64,000 nt of DNA from a virus (IMGVR_UViG_3300025009_000054:64001-128000); one strand, 5' to 3'; shown: positions 13,715-34,083, counted from the first letter of the stretch. Notes: a model not told the origin generated them from the sequence alone. Made by a program: numbers and translations.

Positions 13715-14338
13715 CTATACAGTAATATTATCAAACATAACTGGTATGAGATTCTTCGCATCTGCAAGTAATGGGATCATAAGCTCTTGCATCTGTGGAT
13801 GCGCGGTGAGTGGCGTTCTCATATGGAATATATGTCTCCACTCTCTCCAGTTGGCAGTTACAGCAATCTCAGTTTTCACACAGGTGGGTAGGCAATTCCT
13901 CGCGATCTGTGGCTTAAATCCTTTTACATTAACGTAGTATTCGTACTCTCTCTGGTCAGCATGCCTTCCTTCAAGCCACACATTAAATGCTTCATCATCA
14001 CCACGTATTTCCTCAGGGCAGATTACCATAATGCCTGAGCTCTTATAATTACAGTACCTGGTACTCTCCTGAGCAAATGCAGCAAGTCTATGTCTAACCA
14101 ACTCATGTGATATGCCACGATCACATATAAATTTAACAGTCATCATACTATGTTCAAACATGGCCTCATGCTTTTCGCTCATTCTAGCACGAAGGAATCC
14201 CTCATATGAATCATCTGTAATTTTCGCTTCTGACTTGTAGCATATGCGGATGATTCGCTCCATATCTTTAGCCATTTCAACCGCATCCATGTGTGAGTAT
14301 GGGAACATAATTTTGTAGCTAGGCTGTATTATTTCCAT
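13715..14338 (-). CDS. thyX: flavin-dependent thymidylate synthase
   Basis: HEAMFEH, RGISHELVRHR..FAQESTRYC, NWREWRH, AHPQM. Confidence 0.97.
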   Translation of the reverse strand: MEIIQPSYKIMFPYSHMDAVEMAKDMERIIRICYKSEAKITDDSYEGFLRARMSEKHEAMFEHSMMTVKFICDRGISHELVRHRLAAFAQESTRYCNYKSSGIMVICPEEIRGDDEAFNVWLEGRHADQREYEYYVNVKGFKPQIARNCLPTCVKTEIAVTANWREWRHIFHMRTPLTAHPQMQELMIPLLADAKNLIPVMFDNITV

Positions 14339-14385: not shown

Positions 14386-16644
14386 CTATCCGCAACGGGA
14401 CCATGAACATGCCGGATTAGAACACTTATAACATCCCTCACTATATTTTATCATCGACCCACAATCGGCACACAGCTCGACCTTGGGACCACCAAATAAA
14501 TCTAGCGTATGTCTAACGTTCTGATCCGTCGCACGTTGAATTGCTTTTCCAATAGCATCGGCACACGATAGAACGTGTGTATTCTCGTCAGCTACGCATC
14601 CTAAGCACCGTATTCCAAGAAGCTGTTCGAGGACCGTATCGACACTCAAACCTGCTCTGAGTGCATTACTGATAACACGCGACAGGCTTTCAGCCAAGGA
14701 ATGGCATCCGCTAGCCCTTCCCGTATTACACATGACCTCAAGCACACGCCCATCAGTATCCTTATTTACAGTAATATATATACTGCCACAGTTTCCAACC
14801 TTAAATACCGACGTGCTACCAGATAGAAGCTGTGGCCTAGTAGTAGATCTTATATCCTCCGGTGTATGGGTTTTCCCACCAGCAGACATTGGTTGATTCT
14901 CACGGCAGTTATTTCTATATACTGTCATTCCTTTACACCCAGTCTCATATGCCAACTTTATAGCACCAGCGACATCTTCAACTGTGGAGTTGTTATTCAT
15001 ATTAATGGTTTTGCTAATGGATAGATCTATATGCTCCTGAAACGCTGCTTGCATTTTGATATGATCAGACCAATGTATATCGTGCGCACATACAAATAGC
15101 CTCTTCAGGGACGACGGGAGTCCTGTAATATTTTGAATTGATCCATCATGTTTTTTTGCAATCTCACTAATTAAATCATTCGACCATATACCAGCACGTT
15201 TTGATTCATCGACAAACATGGGGTGAACTTCACTCATCTCAGTGCCATCAAGTACTGTCCTGGTATAAGCCACTGAGTACATCGGCTCTATACCGCCAGT
15301 GACACCTGCAATTATTGATAACGACCCAGTCGGTGCTACACACGTCCTAGTAGCATTACGGATAGCGTACTTACCATCGTATATACTGCCACTCCACGCT
15401 GGAAATGCACCACGTTCATTAGCCATATAAATAGATTCTTCGGTAGCAATATTTGAGATAGCCTGCATTACCATCTTACCAGTATCACGAGCTTCTTCGG
15501 AATCATATCTCAGTCCAAGTTTGAGTAGCATTTCTGCCCAGCCCATAACGCCTAACCCAATCTTGCGTGTGAGCAGCGTAGCATCTTTGATTTCTGGAAG
15601 TGGGTAACAATTGACATCTATTACATTGTCGAGGAATCTTACTGCAGTTCTAACAGTAGATTCCAATATATCCATGTCTATTTTTGGCATATCATCATTA
15701 GTGACCATTAAAGATAAGTTGATAGACCCCAAATTGCATGACTCGTTGGTTAACTGTGGCACTTCTGCACAGGGATTGCAGCCCTCTATCTCACCAAGAT
15801 GTGGAGTTGGATTATATCTATTAATATTACCCCTGAATAGTATTCCAGGCTCTCCAGTTGCATGCGCATTATTAACGAGTGCATCGAATAATTGAACGGC
15901 ACTAATTGTGGTTCTATTTCCAGTTGTAGGACACACAAGGTCATATTTACTATTGGTATTGACGGCATCCATAAACGCATCATCCACTAATACGCTTATA
16001 TTGAAATTTTTGAGTTTACTTAGATTACTCTTACACTTAATAAACTCAAAAATATCTGGATGGCCTATGGGCATGAGAGCCATATTGGCACCCATGCGCG
16101 CACTACCTTGTTGCACAGCATCCGTACAAGCATTGATAGCTTCTATAAACGATATTGGTCCACCGGCCTTACCATTTGTCGATGATACCAGAGCTCCCTT
16201 TGGCCTAATATGACCAAAATTAGCTCCAACCCCTCCACCCGACTTATGAATTAAGGCAAATTGCTTGATCGTATCAAATATACCTTCCATCGAATCTGGT
16301 AATGATAGCGTAAAACATGCCGCGAGTTGTCCATTATCTCGACCGGCATTGATTAGAGTAGGTGTGTTTGGAAGAAAATGCATATTACTCATTAGCGTGT
16401 AGAAGTCAATGGCCTGGCTTATCACATCTTCCATGGATGACCCATATTGCTTATCAGCCATAGCAATAGCAGCAGCTACACGTGCAAACATATCACGCGG
16501 ACTTTCTATGCAGTTACCAGCACTATCTTTACGTAGATATCTCTTAGTAAGTAGTGTAGTAGCATTGTCGCTCAACACAGGATCTAGATCTACCTGAGCG
16601 TGTATCTCAGCAATAATATCATAGGTGTTAAATTCGATAGGCAC
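14386..16644 (-). CDS. nrdJ: class II (B12-dependent) ribonucleotide reductase
   Basis: FLPNTPTLINAG, QLAACF, NPCAE, CNLGSINL, APTGSLS; C-terminal TSCPD-like domain (LSCADAI) and Zn ribbon. Confidence 0.96.
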   Translation of the reverse strand: MPIEFNTYDIIAEIHAQVDLDPVLSDNATTLLTKRYLRKDSAGNCIESPRDMFARVAAAIAMADKQYGSSMEDVISQAIDFYTLMSNMHFLPNTPTLINAGRDNGQLAACFTLSLPDSMEGIFDTIKQFALIHKSGGGVGANFGHIRPKGALVSSTNGKAGGPISFIEAINACTDAVQQGSARMGANMALMPIGHPDIFEFIKCKSNLSKLKNFNISVLVDDAFMDAVNTNSKYDLVCPTTGNRTTISAVQLFDALVNNAHATGEPGILFRGNINRYNPTPHLGEIEGCNPCAEVPQLTNESCNLGSINLSLMVTNDDMPKIDMDILESTVRTAVRFLDNVIDVNCYPLPEIKDATLLTRKIGLGVMGWAEMLLKLGLRYDSEEARDTGKMVMQAISNIATEESIYMANERGAFPAWSGSIYDGKYAIRNATRTCVAPTGSLSIIAGVTGGIEPMYSVAYTRTVLDGTEMSEVHPMFVDESKRAGIWSNDLISEIAKKHDGSIQNITGLPSSLKRLFVCAHDIHWSDHIKMQAAFQEHIDLSISKTINMNNNSTVEDVAGAIKLAYETGCKGMTVYRNNCRENQPMSAGGKTHTPEDIRSTTRPQLLSGSTSVFKVGNCGSIYITVNKDTDGRVLEVMCNTGRASGCHSLAESLSRVISNALRAGLSVDTVLEQLLGIRCLGCVADENTHVLSCADAIGKAIQRATDQNVRHTLDLFGGPKVELCADCGSMIKYSEGCYKCSNPACSWSRCG

Positions 16645-16646
16645 TA

Positions 16647-17900
16647 TTATCTTCCTCCAGGGTTTATTGCTCTTTTGATTCTCATAAGCGAGAACCTGTC
16701 ATATCTTATATCGAGATTATCACGATTAAACCGCATACTCTCGACCTTGGCATTATCACACCAGCCACATTCTATCGTAGACGCAGCATAATTACGACCA
16801 CTACTGTATGTGTTGCCATTAGACATATGACTACATGCTATGATATGTGATGCGAATGCTGGTATATCATCATCGGTTCCAGATGCCTTACATATGTTCT
16901 GCATCATTTTACCCGTATCAACCCCAAGCGACGCTATCACACTATACATTGATTCAATCATGTAGAGAGTTAAATTATACGCTTCGGGATAGATCATTCT
17001 CTCATTTGCAGAATTTGTTAAATCCCGCTCGTGCCATGTTGGGATGTTCTCCATCGCAACAACCACGTATGATCTGACCATCCTAGCGAGGGAACATATA
17101 CGTTCACATAATCCTGGATTTTTACCAGACTTATGTTTCATTGACGACGACCCAGCCGCAGATTCCTTCGACACCTCATATACCTCATCAATTTCCGGAC
17201 GAGCGAGGTTTCTTATCTCTGTTGCAATACGCTCTAGGGTGCTAGCTATAAGTGCTAGCTGACATATATACTTAGCATATACCGATCTATCGACGATCTG
17301 CGACGACGCTGCCGCTGGATATAGTCCCAGTATATAGCACGCTTTCCTCTCGACATCTGGATCGAGTACATTATACGACCCAACTGGTCCAGACATCTTA
17401 CCATAATACTCGTTAGCATTGAGATCATTGATGTGTCTTGTTATATCCCATATCCAGCTAGCCAATTTGCTAGAAAATTTCATTGGTTCTGCCCACTGTC
17501 CATGCGTCCTACCAATAATTATAGCACCAGAATTATCTTTAGCACACTTCTCTATGGCATTTCTAAATTCGACCAGTGAAGACATTATCTGTGTACCACT
17601 ACGCATACACATTAGCGACATCGATGTATCCATAACATCTGATGCCGCTAGTCCATAGTATACTGGAACGCATTCTGGATATTTATCCTCTACCCATGAG
17701 ATGAAACCTATCATTTCATGAACATATTCATTGATAAATGCGTTGATAACTGGTAAGTCACCACCTAATATCTCTGGTATGCATTTTTTGGTAGACAAGC
17801 CATGCGATTTAATTACAGCATTCATAACCTGTGCCCAGGTTTGGTATTTGGATAGATCACTCCAAATACCATTACATTTGGTATCGTATCGGCTAGTCAT
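16647..17900 (-). CDS. purB: adenylosuccinate lyase (divergent)
   Basis: SRY, GRTHGQWAEP, GKMSGPVG, GSSSMKHK..KNP, ENIPTWHERDLTNSANER. Confidence 0.92.
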   Translation of the reverse strand: MTSRYDTKCNGIWSDLSKYQTWAQVMNAVIKSHGLSTKKCIPEILGGDLPVINAFINEYVHEMIGFISWVEDKYPECVPVYYGLAASDVMDTSMSLMCMRSGTQIMSSLVEFRNAIEKCAKDNSGAIIIGRTHGQWAEPMKFSSKLASWIWDITRHINDLNANEYYGKMSGPVGSYNVLDPDVERKACYILGLYPAAASSQIVDRSVYAKYICQLALIASTLERIATEIRNLARPEIDEVYEVSKESAAGSSSMKHKSGKNPGLCERICSLARMVRSYVVVAMENIPTWHERDLTNSANERMIYPEAYNLTLYMIESMYSVIASLGVDTGKMMQNICKASGTDDDIPAFASHIIACSHMSNGNTYSSGRNYAASTIECGWCDNAKVESMRFNRDNLDIRYDRFSLMRIKRAINPGGR

Positions 17901-17902
17901 TA

Positions 17903-18748
17903 TTAGCCCTCCACACGCACTAACATCTTAATATCGGTAATACCCTTAACACCTTCTAAATAAGCAAACCCATCATTTATTGACATTAATCGATATCTAG
18001 TAGTACCATGCAACATACGAACTACATCTCCATCATGCAACTCTACACCATGCGCGTCATCATTTTTACCTGGTGTCACTGGCACGTTACTGATTATAGG
18101 AACGTTAGTACTCCTAAGCAGAGTTGATATACCATCTTCCTCAATGCGACCCCACAAACCGCGCAGTACCAGTATCGATATAATCGCATAGTTCGACATG
18201 TCGCCCATGGTTTCAATTACGCTCTCTCCACCATCATCGAGTTTGTTCTGAAGAATATTGCGCATGCGGCATGTCTTATCATGCATTCGGCTGTGAATGC
18301 CAGTAACACCAACGTCAGATAGGTTCTCATTACTGTATTTTCGACCACGCTCAACCATAATGGATAAGTTGCGATCACACATTTTCTTAACCTGCTGATC
18401 TACCTGCGCTGCATCCATATAGATTAGATTGTCCTCATCGAATAATCCTGACGATGCTACTAGCTGTCCAACAACTCCATATACCGCGATTCGCTTAAAT
18501 ATGTCTATGGCAGCGCAGCAAGCTTCACGACTAATCTCACTACCAGTATATACACACGGCTTTAGGTTGTCAATATCACCCATACCGACGAGCACTCCAG
18601 CGTCTAACCATAACATCTGACACGATGCCAGTATTCCATCTACCCCTATCCTGCTAACGACTGACATTGAACGTGGTGTATCGGTTAGCATGTTGATCGC
18701 AGCAGCCCCAATACTGTCTACTTCTGTACTAAGTATCGATATTTTCAC
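17903..18748 (-). CDS. DUF1599 / nucleotide-modification-associated all-alpha domain protein
   Basis: RGRKYS..N....G..GIHSRMHDK..R..N......ESVIETMGDMSNYAII; GTG start after GGAGG. Confidence 0.75.
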   Translation of the reverse strand: MKISILSTEVDSIGAAAINMLTDTPRSMSVVSRIGVDGILASCQMLWLDAGVLVGMGDIDNLKPCVYTGSEISREACCAAIDIFKRIAVYGVVGQLVASSGLFDEDNLIYMDAAQVDQQVKKMCDRNLSIMVERGRKYSNENLSDVGVTGIHSRMHDKTCRMRNILQNKLDDGGESVIETMGDMSNYAIISILVLRGLWGRIEEDGISTLLRSTNVPIISNVPVTPGKNDDAHGVELHDGDVVRMLHGTTRYRLMSINDGFAYLEGVKGITDIKMLVRVEG

Positions 18749-18749
18749 A

Positions 18750-21446
18750 TTACGCCTCCACACTCTCTTGACTACCAGATGGCATCCCACCACCTAGCGT
18801 CGGCTGACCATCGGATGGCTCAAACCACGAAGTCGTTTCGCCATCCCATACTGCATGGACGATACCTTCTCTGCCACCTCTATTCTTACTAATATTAATT
18901 ATATGTCTGCCATACTTAAATCCAATCTCATTTATGATCTTCTCAGGTTTCTTCTGTGGAATCATGAATGTATCGCAGTCAGCCCATATCTTCTTCGATC
19001 CACCAACATGCTCGGCACCTATCGGATTAAATTCTCTCTTTTGATCCATCATGCCAATAGCTGATGCCGATAACTGTGCGGCACACACAGCAGCTATATC
19101 TAAATTTCCTGCCATATTTTTAATACCGGTGGATACATCTCTATACTCTGCCCATAGTTCACCTGAGGAATGCGACTCGCTTCCGAGTAGCTGTATGTAA
19201 TCTATAAAGACGGCAGATATATCGTATTTCAGTTTATACAAATGGGTGATAGCTGAAACAGCCTGAATTGATGCACCGTACTTTGTTTCAATAAATATGG
19301 GCATTTGGCTTATGGCATATGCAGCATCTTTAACCATATCGAGTTCTAACTGAGTTAGATACCCGTACTGCATGGCGTTTATGGTCACACGCTGTCCAAA
19401 CATTATCCATATGAGCATTGAGTATAACCTAGTCATAACGTCACCATCTTCCATCTCCATGTTGACGAAGAGGACAGGTGCACCCTGTAATGCCATGACA
19501 AGTGCTATCTTTAGCATAAGCGCACTCTTGCCTTGTCCAGGCAATGCTCCTATGACGATATACTTCTGTTTCCTGATACCGCCAAGTGTAAGCGATAATG
19601 CTGGGAATTGTGGTCTAAGGTCAAATCCTGGTAACGTGCCTGGATTTGCCACCTGGTTTATGATGAACCTCGTAGTCCTATCGACCAGAGCAATCCTATT
19701 GTGTTCTCCATCACCATCAGATGACCCTCTAACAGCGATGGCAACTACGTCACCGCTTATCTTAGATACTATTTCATCAGATGATATCGACGCGTCAATA
19801 CACATCGACATTGTACCAGTCATTTTTTCATATAGGGTACGTCTCTTATACCTATCGATAATTATATCTAAGCACGACTGCCAATCCTCATACGACGCAC
19901 TAAATACAGCATCGACATTCGTTTGAGATACCAAATTGCCTTTACCAGACGCAACTATATTAGAGTGTACGACATGGGCAGTAGGTACTCCGGCCTTGGC
20001 ACGTTCTTCTACGATCGCGCTAAATATGAATTTATTTGAGAATACATAGAAGCAGTCCTCTGTCAGCGACGATACACACTGTGCATATATCTGCTCATTA
20101 CCAGCCATAGCCGATAATATTTTATTTTCGGACGTCGCATCAGATAATACTGACGTATCATATATTCCAGACGATACGCATGCAGTAATTGTTTGCTGAT
20201 CGATTCCTACGGCATCAGATATGCATTTACACGCTATTGCTTTGTTAAGTGGACTCAATGTATGGACTCTAGAGCGTACCTTGTTTATGAGCATATGTAC
20301 ATCAAGCACGTTGTCTACTACTGTATCAAGCATAGACTGTTCTATATAGTATTGAGCAAAATGCGTTGCATTGTTGAGCTTATCATCAATTGACGCAATA
20401 CCATGAGTATTTATGACGTCATCTGGGTCTAGTCCTGGTGGCAATGTTACGATATCTAATATCATGCCATCATCTATACTAAGCTGTGATACTAAATTAT
20501 ATAGACCTTTTCTGCCACCAGCATCACCATCCCACATTAGCGAAATTCTAGATGCGCCATATTGTTTAGCAGTCATAACCTGTTCTGGCGATAGGTTGAC
20601 GTTCATAACTCCAACTGTAGATAGCCTATTACATGAATGCATGCGCATCACATCGAAAAATCCCTCTACAGCAATGAGCCGACCACTCTCTCTTATATGC
20701 TTTCGAGCTCTATGCATACCATATAACGGTGATGCAATCGGGTATACAGGAGAATTCCTACTGGTACCAGCCCATTTATCCTTTGATGGCGTCATAGCTC
20801 TACCACGAAAGAATACTATATCACCCTCAGCATCATGTATCGGGAATATCAACCTCCCACCGAATAGATTATCGTTTGTGAGCTCTAACCTATCAATGGT
20901 AATATCATCAACACCAGCACTACGCATGGCTACGATAAGGTCATGGGCATGCTCCGTATATCCTAAATTGAAGTCGTCCTGTGTCTGAGACGGAATCTGC
21001 CTCACATCAGTAACATACTCAACTATCTTTTTATTCTGAAGGTACATCTGGTGCATTACGTCAGCGGCCATACCATTGATTCCGCACAAATAGTCATGCC
21101 ACTGTTCCTCTATGGTAGGCTCTCTAAGATAATCTTTGATATCTATATTAAAATCGACACTAAATTGTTCAACAGCTTCTATGAACGTCAATCCTAGATA
21201 TGCTTGAATAAATCGTATAACATCTTTTCCATGCTTATCGGAACAGCTACCGAAGCATTTCCATATTTGTTTACGATCGCTTACTACGAAACTAGGGTCA
21301 TTATCAGCGTGGAATGGACAACAGCACCTACTTACGGATCCTGCCTTCTCTAAGACTATATATCTACCAATTGCATCTGATAGTGGAACAGCATTTGATA
21401 TGAACTGGATTAGACCTTGTGGGTCACGAACTCTTAATTTTCCCAT
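18750..21446 (-). CDS. DnaG primase - DnaB helicase fusion
   Basis: CHC2 finger (CCPFHADNDPSF..WKCFGSC), TOPRIM (VEGFFD, WDGDAGG, DPDD), DnaB motifs (GALPGQGKS, NMEM, FIDYIQL, AAQLS, KNRGG). Confidence 0.95.
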   Translation of the reverse strand: MGKLRVRDPQGLIQFISNAVPLSDAIGRYIVLEKAGSVSRCCCPFHADNDPSFVVSDRKQIWKCFGSCSDKHGKDVIRFIQAYLGLTFIEAVEQFSVDFNIDIKDYLREPTIEEQWHDYLCGINGMAADVMHQMYLQNKKIVEYVTDVRQIPSQTQDDFNLGYTEHAHDLIVAMRSAGVDDITIDRLELTNDNLFGGRLIFPIHDAEGDIVFFRGRAMTPSKDKWAGTSRNSPVYPIASPLYGMHRARKHIRESGRLIAVEGFFDVMRMHSCNRLSTVGVMNVNLSPEQVMTAKQYGASRISLMWDGDAGGRKGLYNLVSQLSIDDGMILDIVTLPPGLDPDDVINTHGIASIDDKLNNATHFAQYYIEQSMLDTVVDNVLDVHMLINKVRSRVHTLSPLNKAIACKCISDAVGIDQQTITACVSSGIYDTSVLSDATSENKILSAMAGNEQIYAQCVSSLTEDCFYVFSNKFIFSAIVEERAKAGVPTAHVVHSNIVASGKGNLVSQTNVDAVFSASYEDWQSCLDIIIDRYKRRTLYEKMTGTMSMCIDASISSDEIVSKISGDVVAIAVRGSSDGDGEHNRIALVDRTTRFIINQVANPGTLPGFDLRPQFPALSLTLGGIRKQKYIVIGALPGQGKSALMLKIALVMALQGAPVLFVNMEMEDGDVMTRLYSMLIWIMFGQRVTINAMQYGYLTQLELDMVKDAAYAISQMPIFIETKYGASIQAVSAITHLYKLKYDISAVFIDYIQLLGSESHSSGELWAEYRDVSTGIKNMAGNLDIAAVCAAQLSASAIGMMDQKREFNPIGAEHVGGSKKIWADCDTFMIPQKKPEKIINEIGFKYGRHIINISKNRGGREGIVHAVWDGETTSWFEPSDGQPTLGGGMPSGSQESVEA

Positions 21447-25518: not shown

Positions 25519-25908
25519 CTATGTCAAGCTTGACTCTAAAGCATGCTTATCATCCTGAGCAGATGTAGAGCCAGCTCCCATACCACCCTTGTCTGGATCA
25601 CTAGCCCAATCACGCTTAAATACCTCTGTTGATACTTCGGTAATCGCGTCCTGCAAATCTATGCCCTCGGCACTACAATACCCAGCTAGAAATACTATAA
25701 CATCAGCAACAGCGTCTCTAGCCTTTGATAGATATGTCTCTCTTGTCATGCCACGTATACCCTGAACACTCTTTAGATGCGCGTGTGCTAATTCACCTAT
25801 TTCCTCTACGGCTCCAAGTAGACAGTGATACGGCACTTGCTCACCAAAATTCCTATCAGACCACTCCTTTTGATTTCTCTGTAATTCTCGAAATGTTAGC
25901 TCACTCAC
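25519..25908 (-). CDS. MazG-like NTP pyrophosphohydrolase
   Basis: GAVEEIGELAH...DAVADVIVFL (ExxE...DxxD). Confidence 0.85.
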   Translation of the reverse strand: MSELTFRELQRNQKEWSDRNFGEQVPYHCLLGAVEEIGELAHAHLKSVQGIRGMTRETYLSKARDAVADVIVFLAGYCSAEGIDLQDAITEVSTEVFKRDWASDPDKGGMGAGSTSAQDDKHALESSLT

Positions 25909-28841
25909 AGTGATAGTACCTCATACCCTTCATCAGTCGCGTATTTTACCCTATTTCTATGATGCTTCGATAGATACCTACAATTCATATCGGCAATGTC
26001 AAGAACAAGACCATTCTTCTTATCAGGTCTATTTGGATCTTTCCTCATGACACGACCAACACGCTGTATATACATGCCACGCTCAGCACCATCAACCACC
26101 ACAATTAAGTCTAAACTAGGAACATCAACACCCTCATTAATGAGTGTAGTTATCATGCATTTAAGCTCACGGCTCTTAAGTTTAGTAAATGCACGTTTTC
26201 TATCGCCTTTACTATCACTACTAATAAGCAAGATAGCACCAGGTATTAGGGGTAGTAAATTTTTACCATGCTCCACTTTACTAATAGCTATAGCTACAGT
26301 AGATCCACTATCCATAGCACGTATTACACTATCGGCTATCATTTGGTTACGTTCTGCATTGTCTATAATGAGTTGTCTATAGACATCGTTATATGATATG
26401 TCAATTTCCTTACGACATTTTGGACAATAACCTTTGTGGCCTACGAACGATGCTGAGAATTCGATTACATTACCACATTTGCCCTTACCGACCTTAGTTG
26501 GGCATATAACCTTAATAATATTTTTAGAATGATCAAATTTCTCGCACCTGATAATGGGCGGGACCAATATTCCAGCATCTATAATCTCTTTTGGACGTGC
26601 CATATACAGCATCCTCGGAAGAGCCGCTTCAATAAGCAGGTCTGTGTCATCGTCACGGTAAGGCGTCGCTGAGTTATGTACTAATACCCCATTAGCCACA
26701 AACGATGGATGCCCATCCATTTCTAAATCATATACATAGTCGATACTATCAAATACTGATAGTCCAGTATCCTTGATTTGCACCTCATTAAATGAGTAGT
26801 TACTATGGCAATATTTTGATCTTGTACCGCTACGACCATTATTCTTACCATTCATAGCATTAGTAGACCATGTTACTATATATGACGGATGTTTACCGAT
26901 AATTTTCCTACCATACACAGTTCCACCATCACGTGGTCCGGATTTTGGTGATGTAGATCCCGAAACACCTATACTACGAAGCAAACACAGAATATCCATA
27001 ACTAACTTATAGGATGTCGTGGTGTAATAACACCTTTTGCGATTTCTCGATCTTTCTGCACTATGACCATCAGAATCTATTAATCCATTTAATAATTGAC
27101 GTCTAGACTGATATGACCATGAAAAAAGACACTCACCTGGTATATGCTTCGTTAAATGGTTTACCTTACCAAAATACGATTGGAATATATCGACTAATAT
27201 AGCACTATTTATCTCTACCTGGGTAGATCCATCTCGTTTATCAAGTGTTAGATTACAATGTAGCCATGACATACTATTCACTTTACTGATAAATGCATCA
27301 ACATCTTCACTACATATCGAAAAACACAATTGATTTGTATCTATCCAACCATCTCCAATAAAATAGCCCATAATATATGCTAAATCTACAGTTGGAATGT
27401 ACGCATCCACCCACCCACCATGTGAATTACCAGAATAGATCCTAGTTGGTTTTGGCAATATATTTTTATGTTGTTTATATATACTTAACGACAAATAGTG
27501 TCCATACTGACCACGATTCCTAAACCTAAACCATGCTTTTGGGTCCAAATTTAATGCTCGACGATTAGTACTCGTCAAATCAACACATACTAGGGTTCCT
27601 GAGTCATCAGCTCTATCTGACGCGTCGATCATATCAATACCACGATCACACCAATCTATTCCATCATCTCCAATTAATACATCACCAATAATCAAATCCT
27701 GGGCTGATGCTTCAGACACTATAACCTGATGTTTGGTATCTCCAATATTTCTACCACCAGGTACTATCTTATATATGGAATGATCATTCGTCGTATTTAG
27801 CCAAGTTCCGTATACACGTACACCTGGTAGCTCACTAGATGCCGGTACATGCCTAATAAAATTTTTGATAGGTTTCCATGCAAACTTATCACCAGTCCAA
27901 CCACGTGACATTATGCCCTGACCAGATACATCTATAATCTCATATCCATCAGATGTTATATGTGATGCCATGTCAGTACAAGAAGCAATATAGAAAGCAT
28001 CTGCGATTTTACAATGTTGTCCAGTCCCAAAAGGACCACCAATAAGCTCTACATACGATTCGCTATGAACTGATAAACCTACGCGTACGTCGGCCTCGGA
28101 AAAGGCTCCGAAGGTATCGAAAACTGTCTGGGCTCGTAGGTGGTGCATTTCATCGCAAAACACGACTCTCGTGTTTTTAATCATATTCTTAAGGTCATTT
28201 GTCCGATAATCGTCCTTTGAACTCATGATCTTACCAATAGTCTGCAATGTCGCAACAGTCACCACATTAGGTTCAAATACAGTATCACCAACTATTCCAA
28301 TACCGGTACTCGGTAAATACTCCTTAAATGATTCATATGTCTGATATAAGAGCTCTATATTATGTACCAGAAACACTGATGGAACACCCATTTCAGCTAT
28401 GGCGTGAGCGGCAAGTAGTGTCTTACCAGACCCAGTAGGGAGACATATCACGCCACATTTCTTCTCAAGTATTGCTTGACACGCGGCCTTCTGATAATCT
28501 CTAGGATCTCTATTGGGTGTCCAATCGAACTTATCCTCATACCCCTTCTGAATACGATGGTCAATAATATCAATCTTAATATCTGGTCTAGCCTTAGATA
28601 TAGCCCATTTTACTCTATCGACAAGTCCTGTTGGAAATTCATATGTGTCAGAGTTAAAAACTGATACAATGCCCGACATATTCTTTTGTGCCCATTTAGA
28701 CCTATGTTTAAACCCAGGATCCTTATATGAGCACACTGAGCACGCATGGCCTACAGCATTTATTGGGTCGTAATCGCACTCTTCAATAATTATTTTACTA
28801 TACGCAGACCTTACATCTATTTTCATTACTGGTTTCCCCAT
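25905..28841 (-). CDS. UvsW-like SF2 helicase containing an intein
   Basis: PRDYQ, LPTGSGKT, DEMHH, GL|SATP, EGVDVP, QRVGRVMR. Confidence 0.93.
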   Translation of the reverse strand: MGKPVMKIDVRSAYSKIIIEECDYDPINAVGHACSVCSYKDPGFKHRSKWAQKNMSGIVSVFNSDTYEFPTGLVDRVKWAISKARPDIKIDIIDHRIQKGYEDKFDWTPNRDPRDYQKAACQAILEKKCGVICLPTGSGKTLLAAHAIAEMGVPSVFLVHNIELLYQTYESFKEYLPSTGIGIVGDTVFEPNVVTVATLQTIGKIMSSKDDYRTNDLKNMIKNTRVVFCDEMHHLRAQTVFDTFGAFSEADVRVGLSVHSESYVELIGGPFGTGQHCKIADAFYIASCTDMASHITSDGYEIIDVSGQGIMSRGWTGDKFAWKPIKNFIRHVPASSELPGVRVYGTWLNTTNDHSIYKIVPGGRNIGDTKHQVIVSEASAQDLIIGDVLIGDDGIDWCDRGIDMIDASDRADDSGTLVCVDLTSTNRRALNLDPKAWFRFRNRGQYGHYLSLSIYKQHKNILPKPTRIYSGNSHGGWVDAYIPTVDLAYIMGYFIGDGWIDTNQLCFSICSEDVDAFISKVNSMSWLHCNLTLDKRDGSTQVEINSAILVDIFQSYFGKVNHLTKHIPGECLFSWSYQSRRQLLNGLIDSDGHSAERSRNRKRCYYTTTSYKLVMDILCLLRSIGVSGSTSPKSGPRDGGTVYGRKIIGKHPSYIVTWSTNAMNGKNNGRSGTRSKYCHSNYSFNEVQIKDTGLSVFDSIDYVYDLEMDGHPSFVANGVLVHNSATPYRDDDTDLLIEAALPRMLYMARPKEIIDAGILVPPIIRCEKFDHSKNIIKVICPTKVGKGKCGNVIEFSASFVGHKGYCPKCRKEIDISYNDVYRQLIIDNAERNQMIADSVIRAMDSGSTVAIAISKVEHGKNLLPLIPGAILLISSDSKGDRKRAFTKLKSRELKCMITTLINEGVDVPSLDLIVVVDGAERGMYIQRVGRVMRKDPNRPDKKNGLVLDIADMNCRYLSKHHRNRVKYATDEGYEVLSL
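26673..28073 (-). mobile_element. 467-aa intein with LAGLIDADG homing endonuclease in helicase motif III
   Basis: Starts SVHSESYVEL, block B TTNDHS, LAYIMGYFIGDG and LLNGLIDSDG, ends YVYDLE..FVANGVLVHN followed by Ser(+1). Confidence 0.92.
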
Positions 28842-29200
28842 TTCTTAGAACCAGTCATTGATAGCTCTGGTTCGCGTAAACTACCGCGCCTCGACGTAAC
28901 ATCGTATAAAAACTTTATGGAGTGCATTACTTCTCTTAAGTAATCACGTTTTGTAATTTGATCTTTACTACCATGATCACGTACCGAATGATCAAGTCTA
29001 GACCACAAACCAACAACATATGAGTAATATGATGGTAACACCATAAACATTTTATCTACTTCATCACCAGGCACTACTGAGGGTACAGACATTCTATGAT
29101 ATGGTTCTATCGATTCAAATAGTTCCTCATAGGACACGCTCTCAACATTGTACACTGATATTTCTATTGACATATCTGTACCCTCCAAATCATACGCCAT
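28826..29200 (-). CDS. hypothetical helical protein next to the helicase
   Basis: ORF coupled to neighbours; true start probably MSIEIS. Confidence 0.6.
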   Translation of the reverse strand: MAYDLEGTDMSIEISVYNVESVSYEELFESIEPYHRMSVPSVVPGDEVDKMFMVLPSYYSYVVGLWSRLDHSVRDHGSKDQITKRDYLREVMHSIKFLYDVTSRRGSLREPELSMTGSKKWGNQ

Positions 29201-30002
29201 ATAAATCTAGATTTATAATCGCGTTTTTATATGTAGCCTCTACTAAGTCATTTCCTGTATAGTTTCTCCCCTCTTGTAACGAAGCTATACCCATACTAGC
29301 AGTACCACAAAATGGATCTATTATGGTCTGTCCAGGGTCTGTATATGTAAGAACTAACCTTCTACATATCTCAATTGGTAACTGGTTTAGGCCAAGACGA
29401 GGGCTCCCCTTCTTATGAAATGATCTAGATATGGTACTACATATATCGGAGATCAATCTACCACCAGGATTCCTCTTATCCTCTTTACCACCATAATCAG
29501 ATAGATACTTCTTACAATGTCTACATACTACATGGGGTTCACGTATGCGATGAAACGTCGACTCATATTCACTGAACCTATCATTCGGCATCCTACGCTT
29601 TCTAAGGACTAAGAACGCATAATGCCTAGGATATAGACCATACTTTTTGGGTCGAGCCCCACTAGGTGCATCCCAAGCTATCCAATGTGCGAACTCTATC
29701 CAATGATTTGTGCATATCTGCGCACCAGCCATCATAGTCTCATATGGCATGTGATGTAGTATGATCCATCCACCTGGCTTCACAGCAACAGCAGCATCTT
29801 CAACCCAACGATAGAGTTTTGATAAGTATATCCCATTATCTATACTGTCATTGACACTATCACCATACTGTACGTCTAAATTGAATGGTGGATCAAGAAA
29901 TACCATATCTGGCCTATTATTGCGACTAAGGATTGACTTTATAAAATCGTTATATTCCTTATTATGCATTTCATACGGCATTATTAGATATCCTTTAACC
30001 AT
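29190..30002 (-). CDS. beta-class amino DNA methyltransferase (M.BamHI-like)
   Basis: DPPFN, WIAWD, LYPRHY, CRHC...DYGG...NP.G, DPFCGTASMG. Confidence 0.88.
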   Translation of the reverse strand: MVKGYLIMPYEMHNKEYNDFIKSILSRNNRPDMVFLDPPFNLDVQYGDSVNDSIDNGIYLSKLYRWVEDAAVAVKPGGWIILHHMPYETMMAGAQICTNHWIEFAHWIAWDAPSGARPKKYGLYPRHYAFLVLRKRRMPNDRFSEYESTFHRIREPHVVCRHCKKYLSDYGGKEDKRNPGGRLISDICSTISRSFHKKGSPRLGLNQLPIEICRRLVLTYTDPGQTIIDPFCGTASMGIASLQEGRNYTGNDLVEATYKNAIINLDLYGV

Positions 30003-32774: not shown

Positions 32775-34001
32775 TTAAGCTACAATGCTAGTTAGCTTAG
32801 TATCAAGCAATCTTAGCTCTTCAACCGTAAGCATATTGATATCGGCTGTTCTTCCATTGCTAGCATCCTTGATGTAAGACGCCAGCTCTGCAAAATTACT
32901 GCCAGTATCAAGTTTACGAAGCTTATCAGCAACTGCAGTACCGATTACTACCCTCTCATCAACCGGTGCCTGAGGAGGATGAACGGTTGCTGTCGGTACA
33001 GACGTCATGTTGACAAGTGCCATATCAAACGCACTCTTTAGCAGGCCAGCAGGAAGACCTGTACTGAACTCTGTCGCGTACTGTCGGTCCATTGACACTA
33101 TATCCCCGACCGTCTTCCCAGGGTACTTTCCCGTTGGGCATACAATAGCTACCGCCTCATTCGGGTTTATCCTGATTTCTGATGGTCCAGGAGTGCCCAT
33201 ATCACCAACTGGTCCGGACTGACCAAACTGGCCGTTAGGCATCGCAGGTGGTGGTCCGTAGGACTGCATTGGCATCGGAGCAGGTGCCCCGAACTGCTGT
33301 CCTGGTTGTGGTGCACCGAACTGCTGTGGCTGTCCGTATGACTGCATCGGAGCCGGTGCACCGAACTGCTGTGGCTGTTGTGTTTGCATACCGAACTGCT
33401 GTGGGGGAGCAGCCATTCCACCCATATTACCAACTGGCATATTAAGCTGTTGGATTAGCATTTGAATCTGTTCCATGCTTTTAGCCTGGAGTTCATCTAC
33501 GGCATCAATATCAATGAGGTCTGCTTCATTGAACTGAATCGGAGCCTGATTAGCCATAGGAATGACAGTATACTGTCCACCTTTAGCCTGTGGCCTTGTG
33601 ATAATGAAATCCACACAGGACACATCTTTATTATACGCTGTGTAAATAGCACCAATCGGATTCCAAATCTGCGTACCACCAACAAGAACCTTATGCTCAG
33701 GTTTAGGTGTATCGAGGACTAGCACGTTACATGCATGTCTCATTGCAGAAGGAAATCTCTGTCTATTCACGCACATTGGGCAAAGACCCTGGCCAAGGCA
33801 CTTCTCGTAGCCTCTCCACTGTCCCCTACCATTTTCACCTTGTGGGTTATATTCATACAGCGAATGACCCCACCAGCTACACAGGTCACCAAACTTCGGA
33901 TGGCCTGGTACAAAGAGCAATCTCACTCTATGAGACTCTCCAGCTTTGAATTGCAGAAGCTTACCGCTCCCACCGACTCCGTTTACGTCATTAAAAGACA
34001 T
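32775..34001 (-). CDS. gp32-like single-stranded DNA-binding protein with Q/P/G-rich linker
   Basis: HRVRLL, C....CPMC, RHACNVL, DFIITR..YTV; QQFGAP repeats; PTGKYPGKT module; start MSFND after SD; next to recA. Confidence 0.7.
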   Translation of the reverse strand: MSFNDVNGVGGSGKLLQFKAGESHRVRLLFVPGHPKFGDLCSWWGHSLYEYNPQGENGRGQWRGYEKCLGQGLCPMCVNRQRFPSAMRHACNVLVLDTPKPEHKVLVGGTQIWNPIGAIYTAYNKDVSCVDFIITRPQAKGGQYTVIPMANQAPIQFNEADLIDIDAVDELQAKSMEQIQMLIQQLNMPVGNMGGMAAPPQQFGMQTQQPQQFGAPAPMQSYGQPQQFGAPQPGQQFGAPAPMPMQSYGPPPAMPNGQFGQSGPVGDMGTPGPSEIRINPNEAVAIVCPTGKYPGKTVGDIVSMDRQYATEFSTGLPAGLLKSAFDMALVNMTSVPTATVHPPQAPVDERVVIGTAVADKLRKLDTGSNFAELASYIKDASNGRTADINMLTVEELRLLDTKLTSIVA

Positions 34002-34055
34002 TCGTAATCTCCCTTCAGGAATTTGAATTTTGTCTGAACTATGTATAAACCCAGA

Positions 34056-34083
34056 GCCAACGAACATGCAAACCGACGTTGGC
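34056..34083 (-). terminator. hairpin after purZ
   Basis: GCCAACG...CGTTGGC. Confidence 0.3.

Follow-up and report, generated by a model that had tools for sequence, protein, structure and literature searches.

Published systems for the synthesis of 2-aminoadenine (Z) DNA include the step that is proposed here for a phage lyase, the cleavage of dSMP to dZMP and fumarate (PMC12884076, PMC12783734, bioRxiv 10.1101/2025.10.22.683976), and they use a host lyase to carry it out. The cleavage has been credited to canonical host PurB (PMC12884076, PMC12783734), and the lyase step has also been assigned to "host or uncharacterized phage proteins" (PMC12884076). As a measure of scale, 481 PurA homologues were reported in 53,887 NCBI viruses (~0.9%); all phage members of the PurZ0 subgroup carry Ser, and DmtZ-DutZ fusions are reported in PurZ0 phages as a hallmark (PMC12884076).

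Phage PurB-likes are already known at the annotation level. Ghobes gp36 and Hiyaa gp76 (phrog_1703) are phage Lyase_1/PurB homologues found together with a Ser-type PurZ0 and a dUTPase-type DutZ gene, and the lyase described here, P0001, resembles them in all of these respects while being a rare variant. For cellular PurB, the S. aureus enzyme provides the reference. Roles have been given to its catalytic residues, including Ser262/263 as the mobile-loop base and His141 as the acid; Ser94 binds the dicarboxylate and adjoins His68, Gln259 binds an oxalate occupying the succinyl site, Thr93 is cited as a proposed ligand of the succinyl group, and Asp69 contacts ribose O3' through its amide with its carboxylate near O4' (PMC2917274).

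P0001 is encoded by a large uncultured phage. Unlike the published Z systems, this phage brings its own lyase, and neither DatZ (HD_3) nor a DpoZ-type PolA was found when looked for in the genome.

Results

A PurB-family lyase with a diverged C-terminus

The window, meaning the whole 64,000-nucleotide stretch of DNA that was analysed, corresponds to bases 64001-128000 of an IMG/VR virus record of 142.7 kb (82% complete). The genes around the lyase all lie on the minus strand, and the coordinates of the features discussed are collected in Table 1.

Table 1. Features of the lyase locus, with positions counted from the first base of the window.
Feature	Position	Strand	Remarks
PurB-like class II (fumarase/aspartase superfamily) lyase P0001	16647..17900	-	417 aa, stop-free translation
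Diverged C-terminal region of P0001, residues ~337-417	16647..16892	-	without ADSL_C match; low-confidence helices
Remodelled "signature" loop GSSSMKHKSGKNP, residues 250-262	17115..17153	-	HMMER alignment, translation-verified
C1 substrate-binding motif VYYGLAASD, residues 80-88	17637..17663	-	alignment, translation-verified
GRTHG, residues 130-134, general acid His133 (His141) and Thr132 (Thr140)	17499..17513	-	alignment, translation-verified
dUTPase fusion, 297 aa	12346..13239	-	after small ORFs; ~165-aa N-terminal extension and dUTPase domain at residues 171-296
ThyX thymidylate synthase	13715..14338	-	downstream of RNR
Ribonucleotide reductase (RNR), class II-type architecture (lgN + barrel + TSCPD)	14386..16644	-	2-nt gap downstream of lyase
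296-aa gene, weak DUF1599/Nmad1 similarity	17903..18793	-	2-nt gap upstream of lyase; Pfam DUF1599 E 0.0036 (below cutoff), phrog_1485 E 6e-12
Primase-helicase	18750-21446	-	first in gene order before lyase
MazG-like all-alpha NTP pyrophosphatase	25519..25908	-	PRA-PH E 3e-4; phrog_715 MazG-like E 2e-6
PurZ0-type succino-amino-deoxyadenylate synthase candidate P0002	34094..35296	-	PF00709 E 9e-48; ~16 kb upstream of lyase

P0001 belongs to the PurB family, as established at the level of superfamily and fold. Its Pfam Lyase_1 match (E 1.1e-28) reaches 101 bits against a gathering cutoff of 27, and the best solved relatives found with HMMER are the adenylosuccinate lyases (ASL) of T. maritima (1C3U, E 2e-61) and B. 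subtilis (1F1O, E 8e-55). An AlphaFold2 model built from 76 sequences has a mean pLDDT of 81.9 and a pTM of 0.85; searched with Foldseek, it returned ASL 1c3c as the top match (TM 0.80), and nearly all of the top 40 matches were ASL (TM 0.73-0.83). The NCBIfam purB model TIGR00928 gives 242 bits, below its equivalog cutoff of 326.2, and aligns with residues 1-336 only, while the PHROG match, phrog_1703, is labelled "unknown function". In an alignment of 72 cellular-type PurBs, 106 columns reach at least 90% conservation; P0001 agrees with 79 of them and differs at 27. With cellular PurB (1C3U, 1F1O, S. aureus 2X75) it thus shares the fold, ~35-42% identity over residues 1-340, the same catalytic Ser/His/Lys/Asn/Glu and the phosphate-binding Arg/Tyr/Ser/Arg. 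It departs from cellular PurB in its score, in its pocket and loop, in its C-terminus and in setting, as a phage-borne gene adjoining an RNR rather than a member of a pur regulon.

The C-terminus had been described as shortened. P0001 is indeed ~14 aa shorter than PurBs of ~431 aa, but it is not truncated: the last ~80 aa have neither an ADSL_C match nor a confidently predicted fold, so the C-terminus is diverged and not cut off. Pfam ADSL_C (PF10397) gave no match in P0001, only the first helix of domain 3 can be aligned there (S351, G362), and pLDDT runs from 44 to 79 across residues 340-417. Loss or strong reduction of this domain recurs among viral PurB-likes (L020-L022, L029, L037, L038, L045, L047 and the Ghobes lyase L004), in which the tails after the core measure 12-60 residues and the shortest whole protein has 349 aa.

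A rebuilt substrate pocket around retained catalytic residues

The original prediction was of a remodelled active site, and the substitutions behind it are real. The HMMER alignment with 1c3u and 1f1o sets GSSSMKHKSGKNP opposite GSSAMPHK--KNP and VYYGLAASD opposite FHYGLTSSD, and translation and coordinates agree with it; on this alignment rest the Pro to Lys change, the two-residue insertion, the His to Tyr change and the replacement of Thr-Ser by Ala-Ala. Residues are numbered here as in B. subtilis / S. aureus PurB, mapped via PMC2917274, with P0001 numbers following. In the loop, Pro266 has become Lys255, and Ser258-Gly259 are inserted between the equivalents of Lys268 and Arg269, so that the canonical GSSxMPxKxNP pattern, with its Pro and fixed spacing, is absent. 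In the C1 motif, His89 is replaced by Tyr81, Thr93 by Ala85 and Ser94 by Ala86; elsewhere in the pocket, Gln259 is replaced by Ala248, which leaves none of the substrate-binding set His89/Thr93/Ser94/Gln259 in place, and Asp69 by Glu62. The catalytic machinery is another matter. GRTHG is intact, as had been noted from the sequence, and the histidine that changed is the non-catalytic His89, whereas the catalytic His68 (H61) and His141 (H133) are kept. So are Ser262/263 (S251/S252), Lys268 (K257), Asn270 (N261) and Glu275 (E266), together with the phosphate-binding Arg4 and Tyr5, Thr140 (T132), Gln212 (Q201) and Ser306/Arg310 (S297/R301). What is remodelled, then, is the part of the site that handles the substrate.

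In B. subtilis ASL, activity falls sharply when His89, Thr93 or Ser94 is mutated. Since these three residues and Gln259 are all replaced in P0001, it could be a slow or altered enzyme. The changes are not chance variation: the 72 cellular-type PurBs show 100% conservation at every one of the positions His89, Thr93, Ser94, Gln259, Pro266 and Asp69, and the variant is nearly unique. Among 5.8 billion clustered proteins the sole close relative is P0003, a 409-aa protein from a 3.9-kb ENA contig that is 58% identical to P0001; the next matches are cellular PurBs at ~42% identity. Run exhaustively against 1.84 billion representatives, phmmer returned nothing above 43% identity besides P0003. Among the 150 closest of these representatives, the Lys with the loop insertion is confined to P0001 and P0003, as is Tyr at His89, and 137 of the other 148 have Pro and the canonical single-residue spacing. 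The pocket changes are lineage-specific. P0003 carries GSSAMKHKSGKNP and VYYGLTSSD; the Ala85-Ala86 pair is absent from it and occurs in this phage only. Both proteins, at 58% identity, have the loop change and the Tyr, and this conservation points to selection rather than decay. A DNA pattern back-translated from MKHKxGKNP had no match in IMG/VR, and its three JGI metagenome matches were dismissed as chance, falling in a helicase, an isopropylmalate synthase and an unrelated contig without a lyase ORF.

A nucleotide-metabolism operon in a genome with a candidate PurZ0

The lyase had been placed directly upstream of RNR-thyX-dut, and the minus-strand gene order bears this out, with the dUTPase fusion following after small ORFs. 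It sits inside a nucleotide-metabolism operon, 2 nt from each neighbour. Across residues 105-297 the dUTPase fusion matches Hiyaa gp69 with 36% identity (E 6e-29), and its N-terminal part matched no Pfam family; on this similarity it is a candidate fusion of the DmtZ-DutZ type, typical of PurZ0 phages. Megablast of the region against the INPHARED phages found no nearby phage DNA.

The 296-aa gene on the other side of the lyase, which has an Atlas leads score of 0.86, weakly resembles DUF1599 ("nucleotide modification associated domain 1"), and its translation is coupled to that of the lyase. Relatives carry a thymidylate-kinase-like gene in the same slot, to which it bears no relation. Further along the same strand, a helicase gene (ResIII/DEAD, 25905-28841) is split by an intein that contains a LAGLIDADG homing endonuclease.

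A Ser-type PurZ/PurZ0 is present in the same genome. P0002, the only PurA-family gene found there, has the P-loop FGSEAKGK, in which Ser replaces the Asp of PurA, as well as YPIRV and TFID motifs, and on these features it fits the PurZ0 subgroup; residue roles in PurZ are taken from bioRxiv 10.1101/2025.10.22.683976. Its NCBIfam scores are 257 bits for archaeal-type PurA and 215 bits for PurZ, both under the cutoffs. We presume that P0002 supplies the lyase's substrate. The MazG-like protein is a candidate dGTP/dATP pyrophosphohydrolase on the basis of its family matches, and an NDK is encoded by the same genome outside the window; guanylate kinase and SAICAR synthase were looked for in the genome and not found. 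The phage appears to make Z DNA.

Two observations concern PurZ0 itself and its neighbour. A shift to ATP/dATP has been described as the derived state of PurZ (bioRxiv 10.1101/2025.10.22.683976), while PMC12884076 gives the ATP preference to PurZ0 and the GTP preference to PurZ, where the word order may be swapped. Between PurZ0 and RecA lies a gene for a 430-aa protein (32775-34067, minus strand) whose N-terminal half is rich in Cys and which also has a repeat region rich in Gln, Pro and Gly. A related contig (L165) has a conserved counterpart (E 1e-40) at the same pre-RecA position, and the protein may serve in replication in the manner of an SSB; Hiyaa gp68 (419 aa), which follows the Hiyaa PurZ0, is not related to it.

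Viral PurB-likes and their association with PurZ

Searching 50,697 phage records with tblastn gave 33 with a PurB match. The genuine phages among them infect Streptomyces (the Hiyaa group) and Gordonia (the Ghobes group), and their proteins are annotated "PurB-like adenylosuccinate lyase"; Ghobes and Hiyaa, which are PurZ0 phages, each also have a PurA-family gene. "Phage" records from Listeria, Staphylococcus, Enterococcus and Microcystis in which PurB is canonical were set aside, since they have the look of host DNA or of misassigned contigs; MaAM05, for example, was dismissed as evidence, its purB being flanked by metG, mtaB and glgX.

Within IMG/VR, 40 loci encode PurB relatives. PF00709 is present in 26 of the 39 searchable records, rising to 8 of 9 among those at least 90% complete, and at 19 of the 40 loci the partner lies within 10 kb of the PurB relative. 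About 21 of the 26 partners are PurZ-type (Gly-Ser P-loop and PIRV), and four (five if L011 is included) are of the true PurA type, with Asp. The converse association is much weaker: Lyase_1 was found in 5 of the 50 PurZ records closest to P0002 (the best 50 of ~590 PurZ loci), and in only 1 of the 24 near-complete ones. These loci were retrieved with an alignment as query, as P0002 used alone found nothing in IMG/VR. A co-occurrence of purB with purZ, suggested for survey in the original prediction, is thus borne out from the lyase side and weak from the PurZ side. We take the lyase to be an accessory gene, strongly tied to PurZ yet dispensable, because 26 of 39 holds one way and 5 of 50 the other; with 45 of the 50 PurZ records (23 of the 24 near-complete ones) lacking it, the gene is not needed for Z synthesis. 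In two large-phage loci, L061 (G017:C1:98568-102464) and L056 (G016), PurZ-type domains lie inside frames of 821 and 584 aa respectively, which suggests N-terminal PurZ fusions in some large phages.

In a quick IQ-TREE search (LG+G4; several rows have long branches) the viral PurB-likes form a 40-row clade apart from the sampled cellular PurBs (SH-aLRT 97), with P0001 inside it and within a 20-row subclade (SH-aLRT 97) whose members are mostly partnered by PurZ. There, P0001 and P0003 (SH-aLRT 100) are sister to P0113 and P0028 (99). The Ghobes and Hiyaa lyases belong to the same viral clade, in which the C-terminal domain is often reduced. They are 29-34% identical to P0001 and, unlike it, keep Thr93-Ser94, Pro266 and a normal loop length, whereas the Ghobes lyase shares with P0001 the Tyr at His89 and Glu at Asp69. 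This pairing hints that the two positions are free to vary in phage lyases.

The contigs of P0113 and P0028 (L164 and L165) are syntenic with the window and encode a PurB with the canonical loop. Their order is an SSB-like 425-aa gene, RecA, helicase, primase-helicase, a thymidylate-kinase-like gene, the PurB-like gene, an intein-bearing RNR and a 287-aa dUTPase; no PurZ was found in the 15-19 kb fetched. The RNR intein of these relatives is of the LAGLIDADG type, and the RNR of the present phage has none. Directly upstream of the PurB-like gene (L164:9231-9998 and L165:9236-10000), the 254-aa protein of the thymidylate kinase family is a candidate phage dNMP, possibly dZMP, kinase.

Discussion

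Taken together, the presence of PurZ0 in the genome, the class-wide co-occurrence of PurB with PurZ and the distinct viral clade make an accessory phage dSMP lyase the best reading. On this genomic evidence P0001 is, on balance, probably an active, fast-evolving accessory phage lyase that would convert the PurZ0 product dSMP to dZMP, as the second enzyme of the Z pathway; we infer both its catalytic activity and dSMP as its substrate. The original prediction of a dedicated dSMP lyase is supported in part, as a lyase of the phage's own. The idea that the remodelled site reflects dSMP specificity is not supported. Nearly all of the other PurZ-partnered viral PurB-likes (~20) have His89, Thr-Ser, Gln259, a normal loop length and Pro266 (Ala in a few), and the lyase directly beside the closest PurZ0 (50% identity to P0002, G040) is canonical at the pocket sites. 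Remodelling is not required for dSMP cleavage, since these PurZ-linked PurBs and the host PurB credited with the step are canonical.

This bears directly on the reading that P0001 has switched specificity, becoming selective for dSMP while handling adenylosuccinate and SAICAR poorly, or else acting on a different N6 adduct. Four of the replaced residues, Ser94, Gln259, Thr93 and Asp69, belong to the substrate site of S. aureus PurB (PMC2917274), the spacing from Lys268 to Asn270 is two residues wider with Lys standing in for Pro266, the loop change and Tyr81 are both conserved in P0003, and the Tyr recurs in the lyase of the PurZ0 phage Ghobes. Nevertheless, we regard such a switch as unlikely, given the canonical pockets of its PurZ-partnered relatives, the credit given to host PurB (PMC12884076, PMC12783734) and the absence of Thr93Ala and Ser94Ala even from P0003. 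Were it true, Z synthesis could be fed without feeding host adenine synthesis, and the two would be uncoupled. A non-aspartate N6 adduct, which had been proposed as a product of PurZ acting with this lyase, is less likely than dSMP selectivity and finds no support: the PurZ0 aspartate-site motif TTVTKRxRR is kept in P0002 and invariant in all aligned PurZ proteins, and the lyase retains Lys268 and Asn270.

An ordinary auxiliary PurB, boosting AMP (and AICAR) for phage RNA and ATP and unrelated to Z, is a further and quite unlikely reading. The true PurA-type partners with catalytic Asp mean that auxiliary PurA and PurB pairs do exist in phages, and the fetched parts of the two syntenic contigs show no PurZ. 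In this genome, however, the only PurA-family gene is PurZ-type (Ser) and SAICAR synthase is lacking, the clade of the lyase is dominated by PurZ partners, and more adenine nucleotides would counter the exclusion of dATP in a Z phage. That P0001 is impaired or repurposed, whether as a decaying gene, a succinyl-nucleotide binder or a subunit perturbing host PurB tetramers, is very unlikely: its lost substrate-binding residues, its 27 changed conserved columns, its score below the equivalog cutoff and its degenerate C-terminal domain would fit, but all acid-base and phosphate-binding residues are intact, the reading frame is unbroken and closely linked to those on either side, P0003 still has the remodelled loop at an overall identity of 58%, and C-terminal reduction is common among viral PurB-likes.

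If P0001 is an accessory dSMP lyase, it would remove fumarate from dSMP by the usual beta-elimination to give dZMP, with Ser251/252 on the mobile loop acting as the base and His133 as the acid. The dZMP would then be phosphorylated to dZTP, for which the phage NDK would be available. Possession of its own lyase would probably free the phage from the level of host PurB, an accessory trait that a minority of PurZ phages possess.

The wider picture is of a distinct viral PurB clade that accompanies PurZ in a minority of the Z phages, often without the C-terminal domain, and of one rare branch in which the substrate pocket has been rebuilt and the catalytic machinery kept. Should the phage lyases prove active on dSMP, they would complete a portable, host-independent module from dGMP to dZMP, useful for engineering the production of Z-DNA, and in the remodelled variant nature would have run its own experiment on how adenylosuccinate lyases choose their substrate.

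As a minor observation, the window also encodes an N6/N4 DNA methyltransferase (29190-30002, minus strand) that carries a D12-class N6-adenine motif; the phage itself is predicted to swap adenine for 2-aminoadenine.
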